From Alphaproteobacteria bacterium (lineage in GTDB: Bacteria; Pseudomonadota; Alphaproteobacteria; UBA7887), in NCBI GenBank assembly GCA_965216755.1, contig CBDCGL010000011.1:1440001-1504000 (forward strand): 64,000 nt of DNA. The letters run 5' to 3'. The notes below the pieces were generated by a model. The model saw only the letters and a list, made by a program, of their open reading frames with translations, made no database searches and was not told where the DNA came from. Within the stretch, counting starts at the first letter, position 1, and every line of letters begins with the position of its first letter. The translations under genes and the position numbers were made by a program. This document shows positions 1-12,137 of the stretch, piece after piece.

Positions 1-360
1 AGCAAGCTCGCGCACACCGTCGTCGTCGACGCCAATACCCATGAACAGATCACAGGAGCCTTTGGCAATTGAATTGCGGAGGGCTTTACCGAGGCCGCCA
101 CGAGTGCCGGTATCCGTCCAGACATATTCGATGCCCATGCCCGCGTCCTTGGCGATTGCCTCGATGATCTCAATATCGAAACCGGGCGGAAACTCGCCCT
201 GCGACGAATAAGGATAGATGTAGGGGTCGGCGCAAACCGTTAACAAGCCACGTCGTTTTGACTTCTCAAGGGCATCTTCCGCTAGTGCAGCGCCTGAAAC
301 ACAAAACAGCGCCGCCGCGCCACATACCAAGCCAAGAGCGATTCCAAGGGCCCTGTTCAC
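1..360 (-). CDS. XoxJ/MxaJ-like periplasmic substrate-binding protein associated with a quinoprotein dehydrogenase (5' part only; runs off the left edge)
   Basis: Not in the ORF track; translated by hand from GTG at 360 (GGAGG RBS at 368-372): MNRALGIALGLVCGAAALFCVSGAALAEDALEKSKRRGLLTVCADPYIYPYSSQGEFPPGFDIEI... It has a signal peptide and the L.VCADP...P.S...GF..EI pattern of MxaJ/XoxJ-type proteins, and lies directly downstream of the PQQ dehydrogenase. Confidence 0.8.
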   Translation of the reverse strand, partial: MNRALGIALGLVCGAAALFCVSGAALAEDALEKSKRRGLLTVCADPYIYPYSSQGEFPPGFDIEIIEAIAKDAGMGIEYVWTDTGTRGGLGKALRNSIAKGSCDLFMGIGVDDDGVRELA

Positions 361-379
361 CGAACATCCTCCAACTTAC

Positions 380-421
380 AAAAAAGGGGAAGGCGGACCA
401 TGCCGCCTCCCCCCGTTTTTT
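380..421 (-). terminator. Intrinsic terminator-like hairpin between the PQQ dehydrogenase and the binding protein
   Basis: Minus strand reads GGGGGAGGCGG-CATGGT-CCGCCTTCCCC-TTTTTT, an 11-bp stem with one G-U pair and a T tract; a T tract is also present on the other strand. Confidence 0.75.
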
Positions 422-468
422 GTCAACCGATCTCGTGGCCCTGGAACAGCCACGATACCGATTAAGGC

Positions 469-2199
469 CTATGGCAAACCAAAGGTGACGACAACGCCGC
501 CCTTAGAGTGCTTCTTCAGCCATTCACCGTAGTAAAGCGGCCAAATGCCACCGCCACCGGCGCCAGCCACGAACGACACCATCTGTTCGCCGCCAGCGCT
601 ATAAGAGGTTGGGTTGCCGTGGACGCCGGTACCGACGTTGAACTGCCAGAGTTCTTCACCGGTGTCATCGCGCACCGCGTGGACATAGCCTTCGGCATCA
701 CCGTAGAAAACCACACCACCGGCCGTGGCGAGCGTGCCACTCACTGCGGGCGTGCTCATCGGACGGATCCAAGCCAAGCTGCCATCAGAGGCATTATGGG
801 CACGGATGGCACCGTTGCCCTTGTTCCAGGTGATGACCTTAGCACCCAGATACCATTCGCCACGCTTCCACTCCATCTTCTTGGCCTGCAAGTCCATGGA
901 GAAGTTGTAAGTCGGCACATAGACCATGCCTGTGCGCGGGCTGTACGCCATCGGATGCCACTCTTTACCACCGTCCAGCGAGGGCGCGATGTCCCGGGTT
1001 GGGGCATCGTAGCCGACATCCATTTCCGGCCAATTCATGATCGGGCGGCAATTGTCCTCAAAGCCTTTCGCCCAGTTGACGCGGCTGATCGGCACCACCC
1101 AATTGCACTCGAAGTTCTCACGGTTGATTGAATACAGATGACCATTGCGATCACCGTGCAACCAAACCTTCTGACCATCAACATCGGCCAGAATGACTTC
1201 GTTCACGCCGTCATAGTCATACGGGTCGTTTGGCGTGTATTGGAAGTGGCCTTTAATTGAACCGTCATCCGGATCCAGCACCAAGGTACTGTTCGAATAC
1301 AGGTTGTCGCCAAGACGAACGTGACGGTCAAAGTCCGGACCCGGATTGCCAACCGGCCAGTACAGCAGGTGCAGGTCCTTGTCGTACGAACCCGTGATCC
1401 ACGCCGAGCCGCCCCCATACTTCCAGGACTCGCCGGCCCACGTATCGTTGCCCGGCTCACCCGGCGCGGGGATCGTGTAGGTCTTCCAAACTTCGTCGCC
1501 GGTTTCCGCATCACGGGCGGTGATCCAGCCACGAACACCATATTCGGCACCGGCCGTGCCGACGATGATCTTGTCCTGAAGCGCCATCGGCATCACGGTG
1601 AAGGTCTCGGCATAAGTATAGTCGCCAACAGCGACGTCATATTCGACTTCGCCAGTGGCGTTGTTCAGCTTCACAAGATGTGCATCCAGCGATGCAAGAT
1701 AAACACTGTCCTTGTAAGGCGCGACGCCGCGGTTTACCACGTCACAGCACAATTCCGGATAGACGTCAGCCGGAAGTTCACGTTCATACTTCCAGTTCAC
1801 ATCACCGGTCGCGGTGTTCACCGACCAGACCTTGTTGTAAGACGACGTCACATAGCCGGTGCCGCCGACCACGACAACTTCACTATCCTGGCCATCAAGC
1901 GAGCCAAATGACAGAATCCATTTGGCTTGAAGATCACTAGCATTGTCTTGATTGATTTGCGTCTGTAGCGCGTAACGAGTCGATTGATAATCCTTGCCAT
2001 AGTGCATCCAATTCATTGGATCCACGTCAGCATTCATCAACATGTCGTCCGATACATAGTTCGGTTGCTGCGGAGCCGCCTCGAGAACGTCGACTCCCTG
2101 AGCCCATGCGGACACCGATCCAAGACTGACAGCGCCGGCTACCAACGCAGCAACGCCCAAAGCCGAACGGCTGCAGGTCGTAAGAGACCGGTCTTTCAT
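469..2199 (-). CDS. PQQ-dependent alcohol dehydrogenase (methanol/ethanol family), predicted lanthanide-dependent
   Basis: Signal peptide; vicinal disulfide CCDVVNRG; GAEYGVRG (metal Glu); GNPGP (metal Asn); YDYDGVNE (catalytic Asp plus an extra Asp); Trp-docking propeller repeats. Start moved to ATG 2199, which follows a GGGGAGG RBS. Confidence 0.93.
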   Translation of the reverse strand: MKDRSLTTCSRSALGVAALVAGAVSLGSVSAWAQGVDVLEAAPQQPNYVSDDMLMNADVDPMNWMHYGKDYQSTRYALQTQINQDNASDLQAKWILSFGSLDGQDSEVVVVGGTGYVTSSYNKVWSVNTATGDVNWKYERELPADVYPELCCDVVNRGVAPYKDSVYLASLDAHLVKLNNATGEVEYDVAVGDYTYAETFTVMPMALQDKIIVGTAGAEYGVRGWITARDAETGDEVWKTYTIPAPGEPGNDTWAGESWKYGGGSAWITGSYDKDLHLLYWPVGNPGPDFDRHVRLGDNLYSNSTLVLDPDDGSIKGHFQYTPNDPYDYDGVNEVILADVDGQKVWLHGDRNGHLYSINRENFECNWVVPISRVNWAKGFEDNCRPIMNWPEMDVGYDAPTRDIAPSLDGGKEWHPMAYSPRTGMVYVPTYNFSMDLQAKKMEWKRGEWYLGAKVITWNKGNGAIRAHNASDGSLAWIRPMSTPAVSGTLATAGGVVFYGDAEGYVHAVRDDTGEELWQFNVGTGVHGNPTSYSAGGEQMVSFVAGAGGGGIWPLYYGEWLKKHSKGGVVVTFGLP

Positions 2200-2677
2200 G
2201 ACACAGGTCCTCCCCAAATAGTGCACTTACTACTCACAATCTCGTGCCACAGGTCTTGCCATTTCACCACGCCGCCAGAACGGCCACAGTGTTATCGTCC
2301 GCGCAAGCCAACGGAAGCGAGTCCACGACGCATTCAAGACAATCCTAGTCTAGAATATCTGGTTCCTTGGATCGGACCCTGCGTTACGAGCGATGACAAC
2401 AACTCAGACGCGCGGCCAAGCATTTAGTCATGGCCGTCGCCATCCCTGTTTTTGAGCCACCTACGCACGTCGGAGACAGCTCTGATCATCGGCGCCCAAT
2501 GTAACGAAAGTCTGTATTAGTTCAACGCAAGATCGCGTCGAAACCGAAATTGGCTGAAATCAACCGACCACAAATCCGTACATTGGAAAAGGAACTCTAG
2601 ATCTGTCGCGGTCGGCGCGAGGTCTGCCCATGTCTTGGCCGAACAAAGACGAGCAAGGCTGTATTGCGGGCCGTATT

Positions 2678-4819
2678 TTATCCGGCGAATGCGGCCTGTC
2701 CCGACCGAGACCTCTCGCCACGCTTCCGATCAGCAACCAAGGGCGGACAGCGACTTGTGTCTAAATAGTCGACCTGGCAGTCCAAACATTGAAAGCACTC
2801 GTTCAAATTAATACGCCCGTTCGGGGCGATCGCCTGAACCGGACAGGATAGTTCGCAAATATGACACGCAGTCCCGCATTGAGGCCGCCGCCGAAGCCAG
2901 TCAAACACATGGAGCCGGCCGAAGACCGAAAGCGCCGCGCCCAGCGGGCAAATATATCGGCAGTAAAATCGTTCGAAAAAGAGCCCGACAAAGACAAGCA
3001 ATCCGGCATACACAACATACGGCCACGCGCGCACGAATTTGAGTGTGATCGCCGTCTTGAAGGGTTCAATTTCGGCCAGTGCCGTTGCCAGTTCGATCGA
3101 GAACGCCGCCGCGGCGAACAGCCCCGCCACGATCGCATACTTCACCATCCACATCCGCTCGTTGGCGGCAAATGATGGCGTGTATTGGGGCACCCCGGTC
3201 CAACGCGCCAACCGCGCGAGAAGTTCCTGCAACGCCCCAAACGGGCAAAGCCAGCCACAGAACACACCGCGCCCTAATAAAATAAGCGTAACAAGTGTGT
3301 AGCCGATGATAATAACCATGAGCGGCTCAAAAAGGAGAGCGGACCACCCTGCCCCTTTGAATAGTGCCAACACATATGCAAAGACATTGACCATCGCCAA
3401 CTGGGCGCCGGCGATCCATCCCAGCCACACCAACACGAAAAGCAAAAACGCGATTCGCACAATCGCGTGCAACTGTCGGTGACGTGATAATTGATTTTGG
3501 AACAAGAGGACGGCGGTCAATACGGATAGCAATGTGATCAAAATCAGAATTTCATAGTCTTGGGCCGCCCACACCTTTTGCCAGTCGCTTAGGGCGCTTT
3601 CTCGAAACAGCCCAAAGCCAACGAAGTTGGCCTCTTTCAGGCCCGCCTCCTCTAATGCCGTATCATCGCCAACAATATAACCCGCCGGCAGGCGATAAGA
3701 GGCATGGACGGATGGACGCTCTGATTGCGCGGCATTCGCGGCACCTGCCGACGCCGGCATCGGCGCATCCACAAGCAATTCGAAGCGCCACGGCTGCACC
3801 GGATCGAAACCGACATCGCGTGATAATCGCAGCAACGCCAATTCATTGAATTTCGGTCCGCCAGCAACGCGCAAGGCCGTCGGCGGCAGCGCCATGTCGG
3901 CGCGCAAAAGTATAACCCGGTCATCCTGGATGATGCGCACGCGATCAAAAACGCCGGTCGCTTTGTAATTGCTACCGCGCCAAGAATACCGGCCGCGTCC
4001 AGCCACCATCACCAAATGTTCGCCGAACTCCAGATTCGAGAGGTGATGATTGTGCCAGCGGCGCCCGAACAAATTGCGCCCGATACCGGCAGGCGTCGCG
4101 AGAGCAACCGCAACCTCGGATGCCGGACCGGTTCCGGCATCGCGATCCTCGCCATCCCATACCAAGAGCTGGACTGCTCCATTGTCCAGCAGAGTTTGCC
4201 AATCCGCGTCTTGAAAGAGTTCGAGATCAATGCTTAGCCCACCGGCGGCGCCGACGTCGTCTTTCAGCAAACCTTTGGCGCGCGCGACCTTGCGCGCAGA
4301 CAAGACGATAGCGCCGTGCATGAGGGTCGAGCTGATCGTTGCACCCGATACGCCATCGATCACACCGCGACCGCGCCGCCGCATGGGGCTATTGATGTCC
4401 AACCCTTCCAGACGCGACAAATAGCCTTGCATGGCAGCAACCGGAATAGTACCCGGGCCAAGCATCGGTTCGTATTGTTCCAGCAGAACGCTGCCGGCGA
4501 TGCGCCCCTCCGCATCCAAACCGACGATGATATCGAAGGGTTCGCCGGCATAGCCACGGCCATCGACAAGATCGTAAGTCGAGAATAGATAGCCAATCGG
4601 CGCGTCATCGCGGATGACCTGGGCGACGGCCGGATCGTCTTGCACGTCACCGATCCCATCATTCTCTGGGAACATCATCCGAGTCAGTCCCGGACTGATC
4701 CGGGACGGCAACGGGTCGTCCATGTCGGATCGCGCCGGCCCCAGAACGGCGAAAACCGCCATGGCCGCCGCCGTGATCAAAATCCGGGACCACAAACGCG
4801 GTCCGATAACCGACGACAT
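2678..4819 (-). CDS. NosR/NirI-family membrane protein with FMN-binding domain and 4Fe-4S ferredoxin domain
   Basis: Flavinylation motif IDGVSGATISS; several TM helices; CGWLCPFG and CRYICPLG (CxxxCP); C-terminal CGTACHICELSCP and CFQCLDC clusters. Likely start MSSVIG at 4819. Confidence 0.9.
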   Translation of the reverse strand: MSSVIGPRLWSRILITAAAMAVFAVLGPARSDMDDPLPSRISPGLTRMMFPENDGIGDVQDDPAVAQVIRDDAPIGYLFSTYDLVDGRGYAGEPFDIIVGLDAEGRIAGSVLLEQYEPMLGPGTIPVAAMQGYLSRLEGLDINSPMRRRGRGVIDGVSGATISSTLMHGAIVLSARKVARAKGLLKDDVGAAGGLSIDLELFQDADWQTLLDNGAVQLLVWDGEDRDAGTGPASEVAVALATPAGIGRNLFGRRWHNHHLSNLEFGEHLVMVAGRGRYSWRGSNYKATGVFDRVRIIQDDRVILLRADMALPPTALRVAGGPKFNELALLRLSRDVGFDPVQPWRFELLVDAPMPASAGAANAAQSERPSVHASYRLPAGYIVGDDTALEEAGLKEANFVGFGLFRESALSDWQKVWAAQDYEILILITLLSVLTAVLLFQNQLSRHRQLHAIVRIAFLLFVLVWLGWIAGAQLAMVNVFAYVLALFKGAGWSALLFEPLMVIIIGYTLVTLILLGRGVFCGWLCPFGALQELLARLARWTGVPQYTPSFAANERMWMVKYAIVAGLFAAAAFSIELATALAEIEPFKTAITLKFVRAWPYVVYAGLLVFVGLFFERFYCRYICPLGAALSVFGRLHVFDWLRRRPQCGTACHICELSCPVQAIAPNGRINLNECFQCLDCQVDYLDTSRCPPLVADRKRGERSRSGQAAFAG

Positions 4820-4844
4820 GAAACGTCGACCCGAGCTGCGCGGG

Positions 4845-5645
4845 CTATCGTACGTTGACGAACGGCAGAGAAGCCGCGCCAAGCGTGTTGCCGGCAACAA
4901 ACATCGGCTGGTTTGGCGAAGTTGGCGATTGCGCCAAAGGTACACCGATTTCCCGAACGAGCTTTTCTAACATGGCCGCCGCGAAGTCTTCATAGTCTTC
5001 CGCGATCATCAGAAAAGCGCCCGTGCCACCGATCACGCTGTGCAGGTAGTAGCCGTCGACAAACGGCTCTTCATTGAGAATTGCCAAGCCGTTGACTGTA
5101 ACCCCGGCGGCAATAGCCTCATCCCGCATGCGCATCGGCTCGACGCCGGAATTCGCGCGGCCATCGCCTGATACATCGATGACTCTTCGCAGCCCCTCGA
5201 TGTCGTTGTCGTCGAGATGATCTAGTGCGGCACGCAAGGCCCCACCAATGGCCGTTTGGCCGCCGACGATGCGCCTTGGCGTCCGCTGCACCCGTTTGGC
5301 GAGCGCCGCGGCGGACTCCGCGTCGCGAATAATAGTCCAATCCACGGCCAGCGCCTGTTCGCCCTTGTCCGACCACTGAATAATGGAAACCGCGACGCCG
5401 CTGCCGCCGGCGGCATGGACAGCGTCGACCACATCCGGATGCCGCAGCGCTTCTGCAAGCCCCCGCATCTGTAGGGCATACTCATCCTCGCTGACGCTTG
5501 ATGAGACGTCGACAGCCAGCACGAGCTCCAAATCCACCCAGTCCTGCGCCAACGCTGCGGTCGGACCAGATATCCCCCACAGGCCAGCGACCAACACCGC
5601 AAACCCGCTATAGTGCGCCAAACTGCGCCCGATCGGCTTCATCAT
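4845..5645 (-). CDS. DUF1194 (VWA-like) exported protein
   Basis: Signal peptide, then DLELVLAVDVSSSV (MIDAS-like DxSxS), RRVIDVSGDG and VTVNGLAI...VIGG.GAF, typical of DUF1194. Confidence 0.85.
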   Translation of the reverse strand: MMKPIGRSLAHYSGFAVLVAGLWGISGPTAALAQDWVDLELVLAVDVSSSVSEDEYALQMRGLAEALRHPDVVDAVHAAGGSGVAVSIIQWSDKGEQALAVDWTIIRDAESAAALAKRVQRTPRRIVGGQTAIGGALRAALDHLDDNDIEGLRRVIDVSGDGRANSGVEPMRMRDEAIAAGVTVNGLAILNEEPFVDGYYLHSVIGGTGAFLMIAEDYEDFAAAMLEKLVREIGVPLAQSPTSPNQPMFVAGNTLGAASLPFVNVR

Positions 5646-5681: not shown

Positions 5682-7520
5682 TCAATTGATTGCCATTTCA
5701 TCGGCTGCAATCACCGCCAGAGCCCAGGCCGCGGCGAACCGAACCGCTGGGTCGGCGTCATCCAAAGCACGTGTCAAGTCGGCGACGGCGGGTGCGGCAC
5801 GCGCCCTCATATCTCGTAACGCGCCGGCCGCCGCTCGTCTCACATTCCGGTCTGGATCCCGAAGCGCCCGCTTCATCACCGCGATGTCGAACTTCGCTTT
5901 GACACCAAACTTGTCCAGTACCGCACTGCGCATGCGTGGCTCGCTCCGGGGACGATCATCCAAGGCCGCGACTACCGCCGGAACACCGATCTCAGGATCC
6001 GCACCGAGATGCTCAAGCGCCCACGCCGCCGCCCATGCGACGTCCGGTTCCAGATCATCCAGCGCCGACAACAGGGTCGGCACCGCACCGGGATGGCCAA
6101 TGCGTTCCAGCGCCACGACCGTCGCCAGTCGCACGTCAAAATCCGGATCCGCGATCCGGCCAACCACGCGCGGTAACGCTTCGCCAGCCGGTGGCCCGAT
6201 CAGGCCCAGGGTACTGATCGCCGCGCGCCGCGTTTCAGGATCGGGATCGGCGACTGCGGAAGAAAGCGCACCAAGAGCTGCGGCGGCATCCTGACCGATT
6301 TCCTCGAGGGCACGCACCGACATCCGGCGCGCTTCCGCGTCAACACCGGCGATGACCTGCGCCAATTCAGCGACCGCGATCTTGCCATATTTGGCCAGGG
6401 CATCCGCCGCCGCCAAACGCACGGTACTCTCATTATCGACGAGGGCCTCCACGAGCCGGGGCATCACCAAATCGGCCGACCCGGCAATGTTCCCCAGCGC
6501 CACGGTCGCCAAGCGGCGCAAATCCTTGTTTGGATTGTCGGTTATGTCCAATAAAGGTAAGACCGCAGCACCGGCGGCCGGGCCAACCGCGCCCAGCGCA
6601 CGGACGGCGGCGACACGTACATCGTCATCCGGATCCAACAATGTCTCGATCAGAGCGGGGACGACTATTCTTTCGATCGCTGCCCGATGTGCGTTAGCCG
6701 CTGCGGAGCGTTGCGCCGCATCCTTGCCTTTCGGGAATTCCGGCGGTGCGCCGATAGCCTGGCCGACATCGTCCATCCAGGCACTCTGTTCGACGATACG
6801 CCCAAGGGCGCCCGCCGCGGCACGACGAACCCGGCGGTCCTTGTCCGCAAGCGCGGCAACAAGCGGTTCCAGTGCGGCACGGGCTTCGCCCCCAATCCCT
6901 GTCAGGGCGCGTGCCGCAGTGTACCGGGTTTGCGGGTCTGGATTCCGCAAAGCTTCAATAAGATACGGCACAGCCGGCGATCGCATATTGGCCAAGGCCC
7001 CGGCGGCCGCCGACCGAACGGATAGGTCGGGATCTGCCAACGCACCAACGAGGTGCGGGATCGATGCGAGCGCGCGCGTGCCGATAACGCTTAAAGCACC
7101 CGCCGCGGCTCGCCGAACTTGCGGTTCGGCATCGGACAGGGCATCGATCAACGCTGGGTTGGTGTGATTGAGCTGCGCGCCAATGCGCTCCAATGCGATG
7201 ATGGCCGCGACGCGGACGTCGATCGCGGGATCTCGCGTCAAAACCACCAGATCAGGCACCAGGTGACGGGCCTCACCGACATCTAGGGCCCCGATCGCGC
7301 GCGCGGCGATGGCGCGTCTGCCAGGGTCGGGCGCGGACAGCGCAGCTCGCAGATTGTCGGTTGGATTGACGGCCCCAGCCTCGATCGCGGCGGTACTCAG
7401 CCACAGAAACCAAATCAGAACCAGAATACCGTTCCGATGTGTCCGGCGGCTCACTTCGCGCCACGCGTCACAAAAAGAATCGCCACCGGTGGCCGCGCGC
7501 GGACTCGCTTTGTTCGGCAT
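5682..7520 (-). CDS. HEAT/PBS-lyase-like repeat protein with N-terminal signal or TM segment
   Basis: About 15 repeats of the form L..AL.D.D..VR.AAA.AL..IG; hydrophobic N-terminal segment ILVLIWFLWLSTAAIEA. Confidence 0.85.
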   Translation of the reverse strand: MPNKASPRAATGGDSFCDAWREVSRRTHRNGILVLIWFLWLSTAAIEAGAVNPTDNLRAALSAPDPGRRAIAARAIGALDVGEARHLVPDLVVLTRDPAIDVRVAAIIALERIGAQLNHTNPALIDALSDAEPQVRRAAAGALSVIGTRALASIPHLVGALADPDLSVRSAAAGALANMRSPAVPYLIEALRNPDPQTRYTAARALTGIGGEARAALEPLVAALADKDRRVRRAAAGALGRIVEQSAWMDDVGQAIGAPPEFPKGKDAAQRSAAANAHRAAIERIVVPALIETLLDPDDDVRVAAVRALGAVGPAAGAAVLPLLDITDNPNKDLRRLATVALGNIAGSADLVMPRLVEALVDNESTVRLAAADALAKYGKIAVAELAQVIAGVDAEARRMSVRALEEIGQDAAAALGALSSAVADPDPETRRAAISTLGLIGPPAGEALPRVVGRIADPDFDVRLATVVALERIGHPGAVPTLLSALDDLEPDVAWAAAWALEHLGADPEIGVPAVVAALDDRPRSEPRMRSAVLDKFGVKAKFDIAVMKRALRDPDRNVRRAAAGALRDMRARAAPAVADLTRALDDADPAVRFAAAWALAVIAADEMAIN

Positions 7521-7621: not shown

Positions 7622-8395
7622 CTAGGCCGGCAGGAACCATGAGGAACCGCGCGCCTTCTTTTTCCCTTTTCGATCGTCCGCCGCCTGGCCGGTCGCGCGC
7701 GCCTCGTCTTCTTCATTCATGGCGGCGAGACGTTGATTCATCGCGGCGAGCATTGCTTCGGCTTCTTTTTCCGGAGACTCCGCGTCATCATCGTCGTCGG
7801 CTTCAGACGGCGCGTCGAGCGCGTCAGAACCGGAAACTATCTCGGCGACCTCTGGATCGGTCGCAGATTCGTCCAAATCATGCTCGATCGCGGTTTCTTC
7901 CGCCACCAGTTCGGTCGTCGGGCTATCCGTGTCAGCAGCCTCGGCCTCCCCGGCGCTGGTCGTGCTACGCGCCTCGCTCTGCTCGATCGCGGCAGGTATG
8001 ATGCCAGAATTCGCCGACTCACCCGGCGACTCGGAGACCAAGGCGAATAGACGTTGCTCAATCGTGGTCTCGTTGCCGCCGCCCACTTCCGGTTCGCCGC
8101 GCTCGACGGTATTCAGCAAAGTACTCAGCATAGTCCGCAGGGTTTCATTTTCCTGCCGCAAGACCTCGTTGGTGTCGCGAAAATGCTCGTTTTCTTCGCG
8201 TATGGCCGACACTTGAGCCTCACGTTGCGCGACTTCGTCGCGCTTTTCTTGCTGACGTTTCTCGACAAGTTCGACCAGGTCCGCGAGACCTTTGCCGTAA
8301 TTCTTGCGCTGCTCGTCGATCTGCCCGAATCGTTGCTCGGCAGCCCGAACGCGCTTTTGCAGTTCGTCAATATCAGCGATGACGCGACCGTCCAT
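7622..8395 (-). CDS. Hypothetical protein with N-terminal coiled coil and long acidic disordered tail
   Basis: Heptad-rich E/K/R/Q/L N-terminal half and D/E/A/S-rich C-terminal half; start uncertain (ATG 8395). Confidence 0.7.
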   Translation of the reverse strand: MDGRVIADIDELQKRVRAAEQRFGQIDEQRKNYGKGLADLVELVEKRQQEKRDEVAQREAQVSAIREENEHFRDTNEVLRQENETLRTMLSTLLNTVERGEPEVGGGNETTIEQRLFALVSESPGESANSGIIPAAIEQSEARSTTSAGEAEAADTDSPTTELVAEETAIEHDLDESATDPEVAEIVSGSDALDAPSEADDDDDAESPEKEAEAMLAAMNQRLAAMNEEDEARATGQAADDRKGKKKARGSSWFLPA

Positions 8396-8861
8396 TTTCC
8401 CGTTAGCTCCCAACGCCTTACGCCTCAACGCATGTGCATTGCCGGGGCAGTAACCGCCAAGGCTTGGCATATCCCCGTATGTCTACAGATCACAGGCCCA
8501 ATCAGGCCGAAATCAGCATGCCCGACCTGCCAGCACGCGGATGCGATCGCGGTCACAACGGTACCTTTTGCCACAGTTATGGCGGATTATTGCTGTCAAA
8601 CAAAGGTTTGGCACGTCGGCCCGGTCACACCGACGTATTGTGCGTCACATCCATTGTCACCGATTGCGCATGACGAAGTTCAATGTCGATTGCGGCAGTG
8701 CAATAAAGCGTCTTGCCCAAAGTTGTAAGACATCAATCAGGCATGCAGCTGTCACAACCTTTGAAACAAAAGTAAATCACGCACCGTATTGTTTGCTTCT
8801 GTCATCCCCCCCATATCCAAAAGGTGCGTTGGCATCTTTATCAAACTTTCGGGTCGTAACA

Positions 8862-10796
8862 ATGGACGTCTTCGATCTCTTCTCATCGATTTACAGCCAG
8901 GAGAAGCAGGAAGAACTCACGCTGAAGGACTATCTGCTTGCCTGCCGCGAAGATCCGATGATGTACGCCACGGCGGCGGAACGGATGATTGCCGCAATCG
9001 GAGAGGCGGAAGTTATCGATACCAGTCCGGACCCAAGATTGGGCCGAATCTTCCTCAACCGGACCATCAAACGGTACCCGGCATTTCACGATTTTTATGG
9101 CATGGAAGACACAATCGAGCGGATTGTGGGCTATTTCCAGTACGCTGCACAGGGCCTAGAAGAGCGTAAACAGATTCTTTACTTACTGGGTCCCGTCGGC
9201 GGCGGCAAATCGTCTTTGGCCGAACGCCTCAAGCAATTGATGGAAATTCATCCGGTGTATGTCCTGAAGGCCGGAGACCAGATCAGCCCGGTGTTCGAGT
9301 CACCCCTGGGCTTGTTCAACCCGGACCGCATGGCCGATTTGCTTGAGGAAAAATATGGCATTGCCCGGCGCCGCCTGACCGGATTGATGTCGCCATGGGC
9401 GATCAAGCGCCTCGATGAATTCGGCGGCGATATCTCCAAGTTTACGGTCGTCAAACTGCAACCGTCGAAATTGCGACAGGTCTGTATCGCAAAAACCGAG
9501 CCCGGTGATGAGAACAATCAGGATATCTCAGCGTTGGTCGGCAAGATCGACATTCGCAAGTTGGAACATTTCAGCCAAAACGATCCGGACGCCTATAGCT
9601 TCTCTGGCGGTCTGAATCGAACCAGCCAGGGCCTGCTGGAATTCGTCGAAATGTTCAAGGCACCGATCAAGGTCTTGCATCCCCTGCTCACGGCAACGCA
9701 GGAGGGCAACTATCTGGGTACCGAAAGCTTCGGCGCCTTCCCCTATCAAGGTATCGTCTTGGCGCATTCCAACGAAGCGGAATGGCAGCAGTTCAAGAAC
9801 AATCGTAACAACGAGGCGTTTCTTGACCGCATCTGCGTAATCAAGGTTCCCTACTGCCTACGAGTTACCGAAGAATCGCAGATTTACGAGAAACTGTTGC
9901 ACAATAGCGAGTTGGGCGACTCCCAGTGTTCACCCGGTGTGCTCGATTTGTTGGCGCGCTTTTGTGTTCTCACCCGTTTGCGTGAGCACGAGAATTCGAC
10001 GCTCTATTCGAAAATGCGCGTCTATGACGGCGAGAACCTAAAAGACACGGATCCCAAAGCGAAGTCGATGCAGGAATACCGCGACGCCGCTGGTGTCGAC
10101 GAAGCAATGACCGGTGTCAGTACGCGCTTCGCTTTCAAAGTGCTGTCTGAGACCTTTAACTATGACATCAACGAAGTCGCCGCGGATCCGGTGCATCTGA
10201 TGTATGTGCTGGAGCAGGCGGTCAAGCGCGAGCAGTTCCCCGAGGAAACGGAGAACCGCTATCTTGATTTCCTGAAATCGGAGTTGAGCCCACGATATGC
10301 CGAGTTCATCGGCCACGAAATACAGAAAGCCTACCTGGAATCATACTCCGAATACGGTCAAAATCTGTTCGACCGCTACATCGCCTATGCCGACGCGTGG
10401 ATCGAGGAACAGGACTACAAAGATCCCGACACGGGTCAAATCTTCGACCGGCAGGTCCTCGACGCTGAGCTGTCGAAAATCGAAAAACCGGCCGGCATCG
10501 CAAATCCAAAGGATTTCCGTAACGAAGTCGTCAAGTTCGCCTTGCGTGCCCGGGCCAACCACAAAGGCAAGAACCCGCACTGGACAAGCTACGAAAAGAT
10601 GAAGGACGTCATCGAAAAACGCATGTTCAGCCAGGTTGAAGACCTCTTGCCCGTAATCAGTTTCGGCACGAAGAAAGATAGCCAAACCGATAAGCAGCAT
10701 ACCGAATTTGTCAGCCGGATGACGGGGCGCGGCTACACCGAACGCCAAGTCCGCCGGCTTGTCGAATGGTACATGCGCGTGAATAAGGCCGGGTAG
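8862..10796 (+). CDS. prkA: PrkA/YeaG-family AAA+ serine protein kinase
   Basis: Walker A GPVGGGKS; KTEPGDENNQDIS; EFVEMFKAPIKVLHPLLTATQE; C-terminal RQVRRLVEWY. Start trimmed to MDVFDLF. Confidence 0.95.
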   Translation: MDVFDLFSSIYSQEKQEELTLKDYLLACREDPMMYATAAERMIAAIGEAEVIDTSPDPRLGRIFLNRTIKRYPAFHDFYGMEDTIERIVGYFQYAAQGLEERKQILYLLGPVGGGKSSLAERLKQLMEIHPVYVLKAGDQISPVFESPLGLFNPDRMADLLEEKYGIARRRLTGLMSPWAIKRLDEFGGDISKFTVVKLQPSKLRQVCIAKTEPGDENNQDISALVGKIDIRKLEHFSQNDPDAYSFSGGLNRTSQGLLEFVEMFKAPIKVLHPLLTATQEGNYLGTESFGAFPYQGIVLAHSNEAEWQQFKNNRNNEAFLDRICVIKVPYCLRVTEESQIYEKLLHNSELGDSQCSPGVLDLLARFCVLTRLREHENSTLYSKMRVYDGENLKDTDPKAKSMQEYRDAAGVDEAMTGVSTRFAFKVLSETFNYDINEVAADPVHLMYVLEQAVKREQFPEETENRYLDFLKSELSPRYAEFIGHEIQKAYLESYSEYGQNLFDRYIAYADAWIEEQDYKDPDTGQIFDRQVLDAELSKIEKPAGIANPKDFRNEVVKFALRARANHKGKNPHWTSYEKMKDVIEKRMFSQVEDLLPVISFGTKKDSQTDKQHTEFVSRMTGRGYTERQVRRLVEWYMRVNKAG

Positions 10797-10823
10797 TGCC
10801 CGCCTCGCCGCGGAGACACTGAG

Positions 10824-12137
10824 ATGTCCCATTTCATAGATCGACGGCTGAACCCCAAAGACAAGAGCCTAGGAAATCGCCAGCGATTCATGCGGCGGGC
10901 GCACGCCCAAATCAAGGAAGTGGTCAATCGGTCGGTCAAAGGCCGCAACGTTTCCAATATTGATACCGGCGAAACAATCAAAATCCCGACCAAGGGCATA
11001 GGCGAACCGCGCTTCCACAATGCGCCCACCGGCGGCTATCGACAACGCGTCTTTACCGGCAATCGCGAATTCGTCACCGGCGACACCCTGCCAAAACCGC
11101 CCGAGTCCGGCGGCAATGGCGGTGGCAAGGAAGGCAGCGACCAGGGCGAAGGTGAAGATGCCTTTGAATTTGCCCTCACGCGCGATGAGTTCCTCGACAT
11201 CTTCTTCGAAGACTTGTCTTTGCCCGACCTTGTCAAGACCAGCCTAAGAGAAGTCACGACCTACAAAATGCGCCGCGCCGGATTTACGGTGACCGGCACA
11301 ACCGCGAATATCAACGTGTTGCGCACCATGCGGAACAGTTACGGGCGTCGGCTTGCATTGCGCCGGCCAAATCCGGACGACATCGCCGAGCTCCAGGAAA
11401 AGATCATCCAACTTGAGGCCGTCGAATCACCCACCGAGACGCAAGCGCGTACGCTTTCCGCGCTTCGCGAAGAGCTCGAACGGCTCGAACGGAAATGGCG
11501 CACTGTGCCTTTCATCGATCCGCTCGACATTCGCTACAACAATCTGCAGCCGTTTCCCGAGCCCAACACCAACGCCGTCATGTTTTGCTTGATGGACGTG
11601 TCTGGCTCGATGGGCGAACGTGAAAAGGATCTCGCGAAACGTTTCTTTATGCTGCTGCACCTCTTTTTGCAGCGCCGCTACGAACGAATTGACATCGTCT
11701 TTATTCGCCACACGCACGAAGCGCAAGAAGTCGACGAAGAGACATTTTTCTACAGCCGGGAAACCGGCGGCACCGTCGTCAGTACGGCCTTGGTCGAGAT
11801 GCTGAAGATCGTGCGCGCGCGCTATCCCACCAACGAATGGAACATTTACGCGGCCCAGGCTTCTGACGGCGACAACTATTCGGGTGACGGCCAGCGCTGT
11901 ACGTCGCTGCTGGGGCAAGAAATCATGCCCCTTTGCCAATATTATGCCTATGTCGAGATTTTGGACGAGCGTGAACTTGAGATATTCCGGGGCTCCCACA
12001 ATGGCGCCGCGCTATGGCGGGCTTACCGCCCCGTCGTGGACGATTGGGCGAACTTCGCCATGAAACGGATTGCGCGCCCAAGCGACATTTATCCGGTGTT
12101 CCGCGAGCTGTTCGCGCGAGACAGGGAGAAGAGCTAA
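10824..12137 (+). CDS. yeaH: YeaH/YhbH-family VWA-like protein
   Basis: MSHFIDRRLN...KSLGNRQRF; MFCLMDVSGSM; FIRH; ETGGTVVS; QASDGDN; follows prkA. Confidence 0.93.
   Translation: MSHFIDRRLNPKDKSLGNRQRFMRRAHAQIKEVVNRSVKGRNVSNIDTGETIKIPTKGIGEPRFHNAPTGGYRQRVFTGNREFVTGDTLPKPPESGGNGGGKEGSDQGEGEDAFEFALTRDEFLDIFFEDLSLPDLVKTSLREVTTYKMRRAGFTVTGTTANINVLRTMRNSYGRRLALRRPNPDDIAELQEKIIQLEAVESPTETQARTLSALREELERLERKWRTVPFIDPLDIRYNNLQPFPEPNTNAVMFCLMDVSGSMGEREKDLAKRFFMLLHLFLQRRYERIDIVFIRHTHEAQEVDEETFFYSRETGGTVVSTALVEMLKIVRARYPTNEWNIYAAQASDGDNYSGDGQRCTSLLGQEIMPLCQYYAYVEILDERELEIFRGSHNGAALWRAYRPVVDDWANFAMKRIARPSDIYPVFRELFARDREKS

Follow-up and report, generated by a model that had tools for sequence, protein, structure and literature searches.

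A NosR-like gene within a conserved gene set around a PedH-like lanthanide-type PQQ dehydrogenase in Alphaproteobacteria

Gene content of the locus

We report on a 64,000-nucleotide stretch of DNA (the window) from an Alphaproteobacteria bacterium of lineage UBA7887 (GenBank assembly GCA_965216755.1, contig CBDCGL010000011.1, positions 1,440,001 to 1,504,000; C11:1440001-1504000 of genome G000 in our numbering), the left end of which encodes a NosR-like flavin and iron-sulfur (Fe-S) membrane protein next to a pyrroloquinoline quinone (PQQ) alcohol dehydrogenase. Gene order and content in related genomes indicate that the two are part of a gene set that is conserved with one clade of PedH-like, lanthanide-type dehydrogenases and comprises the NosR-like gene, the dehydrogenase together with genes for a XoxJ-like protein and a cytochrome c, and a pair of genes for a HEAT-repeat protein and a DUF1194 protein. 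Coordinates are window positions unless a contig is named; genomes, loci, genera and families carry our own labels (G, L, g and f numbers).

The cluster genes are all on the minus strand. First comes the gene for the HEAT-repeat protein (5682..7520; 612 amino acids (aa); Pfam HEAT_2, E 2e-67), followed by those for the DUF1194 protein of VWA fold (4845..5645, reading frame open to 5681; PF06707, 237.1 bits; VWA, E 9e-8) and the NosR-like, or NapH-like, protein (2678..4819, 713 aa counted from M43). An intergenic spacer (2200..2677) separates the latter from the gene for the PedH-like type I PQQ alcohol dehydrogenase (469..2199, likely ATG at 2199, reading frame open to 2226), beyond which positions 1..360 hold the first 120 codons of the gene for the XoxJ-like periplasmic binding protein (280 aa in full). 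Left of the window the XoxJ-like gene continues and is directly followed by a gene for a 143-aa c-type cytochrome (CVYCH) and then by one for a Sel1-repeat protein. An earlier note on the window had described a full NosR-type protein upstream of, and co-oriented with, the PQQ dehydrogenase and the XoxJ-like protein, and our open reading frames (ORFs), coordinates and motifs agree with this description; it had also surmised a cytochrome partner beyond the left edge, which is where the 143-aa cytochrome is encoded.

The DUF1194 stop codon lies 25 bp ahead of the NosR-like start, and the gap from the NosR-like gene to the dehydrogenase gene is ~480 bp. Neither a strong terminator-like hairpin nor a conserved ORF was seen in this spacer, and no ORF or sequence in it is common to the window and genus g6. 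At other loci the spacer is ~200 bp (G203 and G141), ~280 bp (G411), ~130 bp (G296) or ~730-780 bp (genus g6) in length. The ~760-bp spacer of one of the g6 genomes (G011, L038) holds a 145-aa ORF with an HExxH-like stretch; the DNA of that spacer is ~75% identical across three g6 genomes and has no counterpart in the window.

Conservation of the linkage

The surroundings of the dehydrogenase orthologues were examined and homologues of six window proteins were placed by tblastn. Orthologues (62-80% identity to the G000 protein) were present in 14 genomes representing three families: ten of the 23 genomes of the order, which consists of this family only (G000, five of the six in genus g6 and four of the six in genus g8), and five of the 401 sampled genomes of the class, G000 included, the other four being three from family f120 and one from family f182. 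The NosR-like proteins of G000 and the genomes with an orthologous locus are 46-50% identical.

The NosR-like gene is directly upstream of the dehydrogenase gene, and co-oriented with it, in eight of the 14 genomes (G000, G014, G011, G019, G203, G141, G296 and G411). For two (G007 and G022) the slot lies at a contig end and is undecidable, which makes eight of 12 decidable orthologous loci, and the conserved linkage to PQQ dehydrogenases for which the earlier note had suggested a survey is thereby borne out. In the two other families the gene is upstream at all four loci. Just upstream of it, the three f120 genomes have a shorter NapH-like gene (L070:3381-4337, L076:13707-14798 and L077:13556-14512), which matches the membrane and Fe-S part only (residues ~376/416-741).

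Four layouts were distinguished. In layout (i) the order is HEAT, DUF1194, NosR-like, dehydrogenase, XoxJ and cytochrome c, all co-oriented (G000, G014, G011 and G019), with the exceptions that no HEAT gene adjoins DUF1194 in G014 and that the HEAT gene is ~2 kb off in G019. In layout (ii) the NosR-like, dehydrogenase, XoxJ and cytochrome c genes are convergent with DUF1194-HEAT (G203, G141 and G411); G296 has the first four genes of this layout and, over the 20 kb examined, neither a DUF1194 nor a HEAT gene. Layout (iii) comprises the dehydrogenase, XoxJ and cytochrome c genes convergent with DUF1194-(Sel1)-HEAT and has no NosR-like gene (G020, inspected over 8 kb upstream, and G015, inspected over 9.7 kb, with the module split over two contigs). 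G007 and G022 resemble layout (iii), their sequence ending ~450 bp or less upstream of the dehydrogenase gene, and G018 is a fragment. Finally, in layout (iv) the dehydrogenase, XoxJ and cytochrome c genes are at one site and HEAT-DUF1194-NosR-like at another (G005 and G017). At the latter site in G005 a same-strand gene for a TonB-dependent receptor (Plug domain; L051:11747-14230) follows the three genes, away from the dehydrogenase.

A cytochrome c gene follows the XoxJ-like gene at eight of eight NosR-linked loci and is present wherever the downstream end of the cluster is visible. The DUF1194 orthologue is beside the dehydrogenase module in ten of the 14 genomes, is not there in three (G005, G017 and G296) and is undecided in one (G022). 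HEAT homologues adjoin DUF1194 in G011, G005, G017, G007, G020, G015, G018, G022, G203, G141 and G411, and the DUF1194 and NosR-like genes overlap by 4 bp in G005 and G011. Each pair of modules was found without the third: NosR-like and dehydrogenase in G296, HEAT-DUF1194 and dehydrogenase in G020, and HEAT-DUF1194 and NosR-like, with no dehydrogenase at the site, in G005 and G017. Such pairwise co-occurrence is the pattern that would be expected of genes working together. The probability that one of the 12 NosR-like genes of the 5.0-Mb genome lies within 3 kb of a given gene was estimated to ~1-2%, and because the adjacency also recurs in other families, chance is unlikely as its cause. A search of related loci with the NosR-like protein itself gave one locus (40% identity) with neither a dehydrogenase nor a DUF1194 gene nearby.

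The NosR-like protein

The NosR-type ORF spans 2678..4945 (minus strand), with the probable start, M43, at 4819. The protein aligns end to end with the NCBIfam equivalog model for NosR, NF046105 (model positions 22-680 of 680), at 574.7 bits, which is below the cut-off of 1000. Pfam identified Fer4_5 (PF12801; E 2.8e-16), and FMN_bind scored 21.4 bits, just below its 22-bit cut-off. The Cys and flavin pattern of NosR-type proteins is present (DGVSGAT, CGWLCP, CRYICP, CGTACHICELSCP and CFQCLDC...CP); numbered from M43, the motifs are SGAT at 158 (in DGVSGAT), CGWLCP at 521, CRYICP at 620, CELSCP at 655 and CFQCLDC at 675. On the basis of hydropathy, an N-terminal anchor (residues 9-27) precedes a part of ~390 residues, predicted to be periplasmic, which bears DGVSGAT; hydrophobic helices at ~422-620 enclose the CX3CP motifs, and the C-terminal tail has two ferredoxin-type Cys patterns. 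A sequence search of the PDB gave no match at E <= 0.001. Prediction of a complex between residues 30-420 of the NosR-like protein and residues 35-250 of mature DUF1194 scored 0.00 against a mark of 0.32, an outcome classed as "no answer" that weighs neither way.

The window protein appears to be neither NosR nor NirI and rather a separate paralogue within the same NapH-like, ApbE-flavinylated family, since it scores 574.7 bits where the cut-off is 1000, the nosZ- and nirS-linked copies are other genes of this genome, and it falls in a separate clade (see below).

NosR-like and PQQ dehydrogenase paralogues

The genome has 12 full-length, stop-free NosR-like paralogues. None of them reaches the NF046105 cut-off, the best score being the 835.6 bits of the nosZ-linked copy. 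Both CX3CP motifs and both Cys clusters are kept in all 12, and the flavinylation motif is SGAT in eight, SGAS in one and deviant in three (SAAT, TSAT and SRTT). Sites of paralogues on C11 include 2781813, 453220, 298982, 2672869, 123450, 800397, 2966422, 2971536 and 3703586.

No nos, nir or apbE gene is present in the window. The earlier note had remarked on this for nosZ, nirS and apbE, and the genome-wide search places all three elsewhere. The nosZ gene is at C11:1691593, ~187 kb right of the window end (nosZ and its NosR-like neighbour span C11:1689375-1693479), and matches to nosD, nosY and nosL (an ABC-2 permease and NosL by Pfam) are also at 1.69 Mb. The nirS gene is at ~4.72-4.726 Mb together with a divergent NirI-like gene. 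The single ApbE match of the whole genome (C11:3702535-3703362) adjoins yet another NosR-like paralogue and is outside the window cluster.

Likewise, 12 paralogues of the PQQ dehydrogenase family are encoded in the genome; ten have D-x-D, and six of these also have Cys-Cys. The D-x-A motif of MxaF-type enzymes is in none of the 12, and the top TIGR03075 score is 575 bits (~760 bits in some relatives), because of which the genome seems to be without a classical MxaF. PqqE is encoded twice. All 22 other genomes of the family have between one and nine NosR-like matches and several PQQ dehydrogenases.

Only two of the NosR-like genes in G000 are near a PQQ dehydrogenase gene, the window copy and one at 2.97 Mb. 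The second cluster (C11:2971344-2978001; L022:12945-19602) consists of a NosR-like gene, three small genes (271, 152 and 151 aa, no Pfam match) and a dehydrogenase gene with DYD and without Cys-Cys, and a cytochrome c gene is just to the right. Its small genes, dehydrogenase (48-52% identity) and NosR-like gene recur in two genomes of genus g8 (G012, L043, and G020, L044); the second-cluster NosR-like genes of G000 and G012 belong to different clades.

The dehydrogenase, the XoxJ-like protein and the cytochrome

The dehydrogenase scores 525.7 bits with TIGR03075, above the cut-off of 480. Besides a signal peptide it has two vicinal Cys residues and a D-Y-D motif of the lanthanide type. The best PDB match is PedH of Pseudomonas putida (6ZCW/6ZCV; E 6e-97), followed by XoxF (4MAE); YDYDGVNE in the window protein aligns with WDFDGVNE in PedH (6ZCW) and WDYDGVNE in XoxF (4MAE), and the vicinal Cys residues are aligned as well. 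An extra Asp two residues past the catalytic Asp (D-x-D) is the mark of lanthanide-dependent PQQ alcohol dehydrogenases, and by this motif the enzyme is classified as lanthanide-type.

The full-length XoxJ-like protein matches the MoxJ-type models weakly (77 bits, cut-off 212), and the cytochrome is a distant relative of MoxG and PedF (46.6 bits, cut-off 147.8). The predicted electron acceptor of the dehydrogenase is the usual one, a c-type cytochrome, encoded beyond the left edge.

DUF1194 and HEAT proteins

The DUF1194 protein (cut-off for PF06707, 27 bits) has a signal peptide followed by a metal ion-dependent adhesion site (MIDAS) motif, DVSSS, at residue 46. The MIDAS residues D46, S48, S50, T131 and D161 (DxSxS...T...D) are invariant in 18 of 18 aligned orthologues of the family. 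By tblastn the gene is single copy in this genome, and DUF1194 was found in 98 of 301 genomes of the class (counting in G261, one unpublished genome). In G001 the DUF1194 homologue (L066:9376-10086) is interrupted by one stop codon. Near its N-terminus the HEAT protein has a hydrophobic anchor or signal (residues 32-50), and it is predicted to be periplasmic or membrane-anchored. The function of DUF1194 is given as unknown in PMC12282271, where it is treated as a VWA/MIDAS protein that is secreted and encoded close to genes of type 11 secretion. None of the published papers found to name DUF1194 concerns dehydrogenases.

Phylogeny of the NosR-like copies

Two trees were computed, a careful one based on 31 NosR-like sequences and a quick one with 37 rows, in which the ApbE-linked paralogue (long branch) was left out. 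The nosZ- and nirS-linked copies form one clade and the window copy is in another (support 96/95 with 31 rows; 100 in the Shimodaira-Hasegawa-like approximate likelihood ratio test, SH-aLRT, with 37 rows). The window copy is beside two tandem copies of G001, the neighbours of which are hydrolases and CoA-transferases, and the five g6 copies of the same slot form a clade of their own, nearer to three other G000 paralogues. In the quick tree the f120 copies join the window copy (89% SH-aLRT) and the G203 copy is near the base of the remaining non-NosR/NirI clade, the backbone branches being short. The dehydrogenase-linked copies are thus placed by these trees as early branches of the non-NosR/NirI clade. 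Among homologues outside its own family, those most similar to the window copy (49-50% identity) are syntenic with an orthologous dehydrogenase. The earlier note had named, as the outcome that would speak against its proposal, that close homologues cluster with nosZ- or nirS-linked copies and lack synteny with PQQ dehydrogenases; the window copy is instead in a separate clade, and its most similar homologues from other families are syntenic.

Simple orthology of the same-slot NosR-like genes of genera g1 and g6 was considered and is rejected by the approximately unbiased (AU) test, which rejects monophyly of the window copy and the g6 syntenic copies (delta lnL 54.2, p 1.4e-6). The group was set by synteny ahead of the tree, while the test itself was picked after the tree had been seen. 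Paralogue exchange or conversion in the expanded NosR-like family is possible.

Other features of the locus

A terminator-like hairpin (385..414, minus strand; 12-bp stem with nine G-C pairs and a T run; a pattern match only) is present between the dehydrogenase and XoxJ-like genes. The Sel1-repeat gene was considered as a further member of the set and was dropped, the repeat-level matches being weak (32-34% over ~94 residues). Upstream of the HEAT gene, 7622..8470 (minus strand) encodes a 282-aa acidic, coiled-coil-like ORF with no Pfam match and no homologue in the related loci searched. Two plus-strand ORFs at 8541..12137 (751 and 437 aa) resemble a PrkA-type kinase and a YeaH/DUF444-type protein. 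The DNA is contained in four sequencing runs of a single study, and no RNA data set containing it is listed.

Discussion

That NosR-like genes are linked to genes for PQQ dehydrogenases is already in print as a genome-survey result, and the cluster described here adds to a known, uncharacterised kind. Meheust et al. 2021 (eLife, PMC8238504) reported NapH-like proteins (PF12801), mostly with an N-terminal FMN-binding domain (FMN, flavin mononucleotide), in clusters with NirS (133 genomes) and with ExaA (172 genomes), and stated that these associations arose several times. The earlier note had allowed that the linkage might not be new, which is correct. Of the two roles that it had suggested for the NosR-like protein, a flavin-based electron route and a reductive activation partner of the dehydrogenase, the former is also put forward in that paper (PMC8238504); both are hypothetical for the window protein. 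As there, the window cluster has a membrane Fe-S protein with PF12801 and an extracytosolic FMN-binding domain that adjoins a PQQ alcohol dehydrogenase; the published systems (PMC8238504) are documented by genome surveys only. With respect to the features that define the ExaA systems, the window protein has PF12801, the helices and the FMN-binding domain, and the genome has its one ApbE. For a further defining feature, an ExaA-type (KEGG K00114) enzyme in the cluster, the downstream gene is a candidate, being that of a PQQ alcohol dehydrogenase above the TIGR03075 cut-off. The difference is that in the published model (PMC8238504) the NapH-like protein does the job of cytochrome c, whereas here a cytochrome c and a XoxJ-like protein are co-encoded. 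In addition, the window cluster has the lanthanide motif and the co-conserved HEAT and DUF1194 genes, and ApbE is encoded outside it. That cytochrome c is always encoded as well, and that the HEAT/DUF1194 pair is co-conserved, may be new; neither was found in the papers examined (of Meheust et al., the text and not the cluster tables). A 2024 mSystems paper on flavinylation (PMC11334425) has no mention of NapH, alcohol, ExaA or PQQ, and, among the papers listed, those that name both nosR and xoxF are, by title, on methanotroph genomes, communities and N2O respiration and not on this linkage.

The gene set also resembles other known systems in part. It shares the full-length architecture and motifs with NosR (nosZ-linked) and NirI (nirS-linked), and differs in the score, the clade and the absence of nos and nir genes nearby noted above. 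The periplasmic enzymes beside which NosR and NirI work have cytochrome c or cupredoxin partners as well. As in the PedH/PedF and XoxF/XoxJ/XoxG systems, the enzyme is a type I PQQ dehydrogenase that has both D-x-D and Cys-Cys, and next come a homologue of periplasmic binding proteins and a small cytochrome c, though the XoxJ-like protein and the cytochrome score far below the cut-offs of the MoxJ, MoxG and PedF models. To our knowledge neither of these systems includes a NosR-like, HEAT or DUF1194 gene. For MxaFI, a VWA/MoxR set (MxaR, S, A, C, K and L) is described as needed for Ca2+ insertion and MxaJ for PQQ insertion, and maturation of XoxF-type (XoxF/PedH-type) enzymes is stated to be open (PMC12276312). 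MxaS, MxaC and MxaL, with the MoxR-type MxaR, are VWA-fold proteins co-encoded with a PQQ dehydrogenase (PMC12276312), as is DUF1194 here. DUF1194, however, is predicted to be a secreted, stand-alone MIDAS protein and has no MoxR ATPase gene nearby, and the likeness is to be taken as a lead only.

We are inclined, if only slightly, to read the NosR-like paralogue as an accessory that works beside cytochrome c, and not as its replacement, in the PedH-like dehydrogenase system, because a cytochrome c is encoded at all NosR-linked loci and the dehydrogenase module can stand without a neighbouring NosR-like gene. With cytochrome c co-encoded, the NosR-like protein would therefore not be needed as an electron route. 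By analogy with its family, ApbE would bind FMN covalently to the DGVSGAT Thr on the periplasmic side, and the membrane part and the cytoplasmic Fe-S clusters would link this flavin to the quinone or cytoplasmic pool. The periplasmic dehydrogenase system could then exchange electrons with the membrane or cytoplasmic pool, and the NosR-like protein would maintain a redox state in which the enzyme system can work, without being its main electron outlet (cf. NosR for NosZ).

Several observations weigh against this accessory role. The NosR-like gene is not at the locus in four of the 12 decidable cases (G005, G017, G020 and G015), and genus g8 is without any NosR-like gene at its dehydrogenase locus. 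The genomes are kin, and the eight cases therefore go back to a small number of independent events, in about three lineages and with three arrangements; in the AU test, moreover, the same-slot copies of G000 and genus g6 do not form one group. Most of the other 11 NosR-like paralogues have mixed neighbours and no evident periplasmic redox partner, and the family may have further roles not visible here. That the protein acts beside, and not instead of, the cytochrome is read from gene content alone. Finally, DUF1194 is 25 bp away and the dehydrogenase gene ~480 bp, which would suit a closer tie to the former.

The published model for NapH-like/ExaA clusters (Meheust et al. 2021, PMC8238504), in which electrons would leave reduced PQQ for the periplasmic FMN of the NosR-like protein and reach the quinone pool through its Fe-S clusters, here in parallel to cytochrome c, would agree with the position of the NosR-like gene directly upstream of the dehydrogenase gene, with gaps of ~130-280 bp, at the four loci of the other families. 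It is harder to reconcile with the cytochrome c at all eight NosR-linked loci, so that replacement is not seen, and with the four of 12 loci where the dehydrogenase module has no NosR-like neighbour; also, judged from midpoint potentials, transfer from reduced PQQ (~+90 mV) to FMN or a 4Fe-4S cluster would probably be uphill. We consider an electron outlet of this kind unlikely, if worth keeping in mind.

The short distance between the DUF1194 and NosR-like genes (25 bp in the window, 4-bp overlaps in G005 and G011), together with the occurrence of HEAT-DUF1194-NosR-like at a dehydrogenase-free site in G005 and G017, would also suit a NosR-like protein that serves the HEAT/DUF1194 pair and has no working tie to the dehydrogenase, the adjacency to which would be inherited gene order. 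Yet in G203, G141 and G411 the NosR-like gene immediately precedes the dehydrogenase gene and lies at the end of the cluster remote from DUF1194, in G296 it adjoins the dehydrogenase gene with no DUF1194 or HEAT gene in the 20 kb examined, and the adjacency has outlasted at least three different rearrangements; we regard such a service role as quite unlikely. Our initial reading, in which the dehydrogenase was a bystander and DUF1194/HEAT the real partner, was weakened by the loci of the two other families.

That the NosR-like protein is a membrane redox sensor or regulator required for expression of its neighbours and not for catalysis, as the NCBIfam name "transcriptional regulator" for NosR, the first descriptions of NosR and NirI as needed for nosZ and nirS transcription, the 12 paralogues (which would suit condition-specific control) and the many paralogues without an obvious redox client might suggest, is very unlikely given that no DNA-binding domain was found in the Pfam scan, that conservation of the FMN and Fe-S motifs speaks for electron transfer, and that even for NosR no mechanism is known.

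A further reading, to which we assign a low probability, is that the HEAT, DUF1194 and NosR-like proteins form a periplasmic maturation and maintenance kit for one clade of lanthanide PQQ dehydrogenases. DUF1194 might pass Ln3+ from its MIDAS to the apo-enzyme and so be a periplasmic equivalent of the VWA proteins for Ca2+ insertion into MxaFI, and the NosR-like protein, fed with electrons by the membrane pool, might adjust the redox state of PQQ or of the Cys-Cys pair as the enzyme is loaded or afterwards.

Alcohol dehydrogenases of the lanthanide type take a widespread part in the carbon cycling of the environment, and little is known of how they acquire metal and cofactor or of their respiratory links beyond cytochrome c. 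That a NosR-type partner has stayed with such an enzyme through several rearrangements, always together with a cytochrome c, suggests that the published "flavin instead of haem" picture is incomplete for this group. A possible support role like that of NosR for NosZ is indicated, with DUF1194 and the HEAT protein as new candidates, and the genome constitutes a natural panel, in which one ApbE would serve 12 intact NosR-like paralogues.

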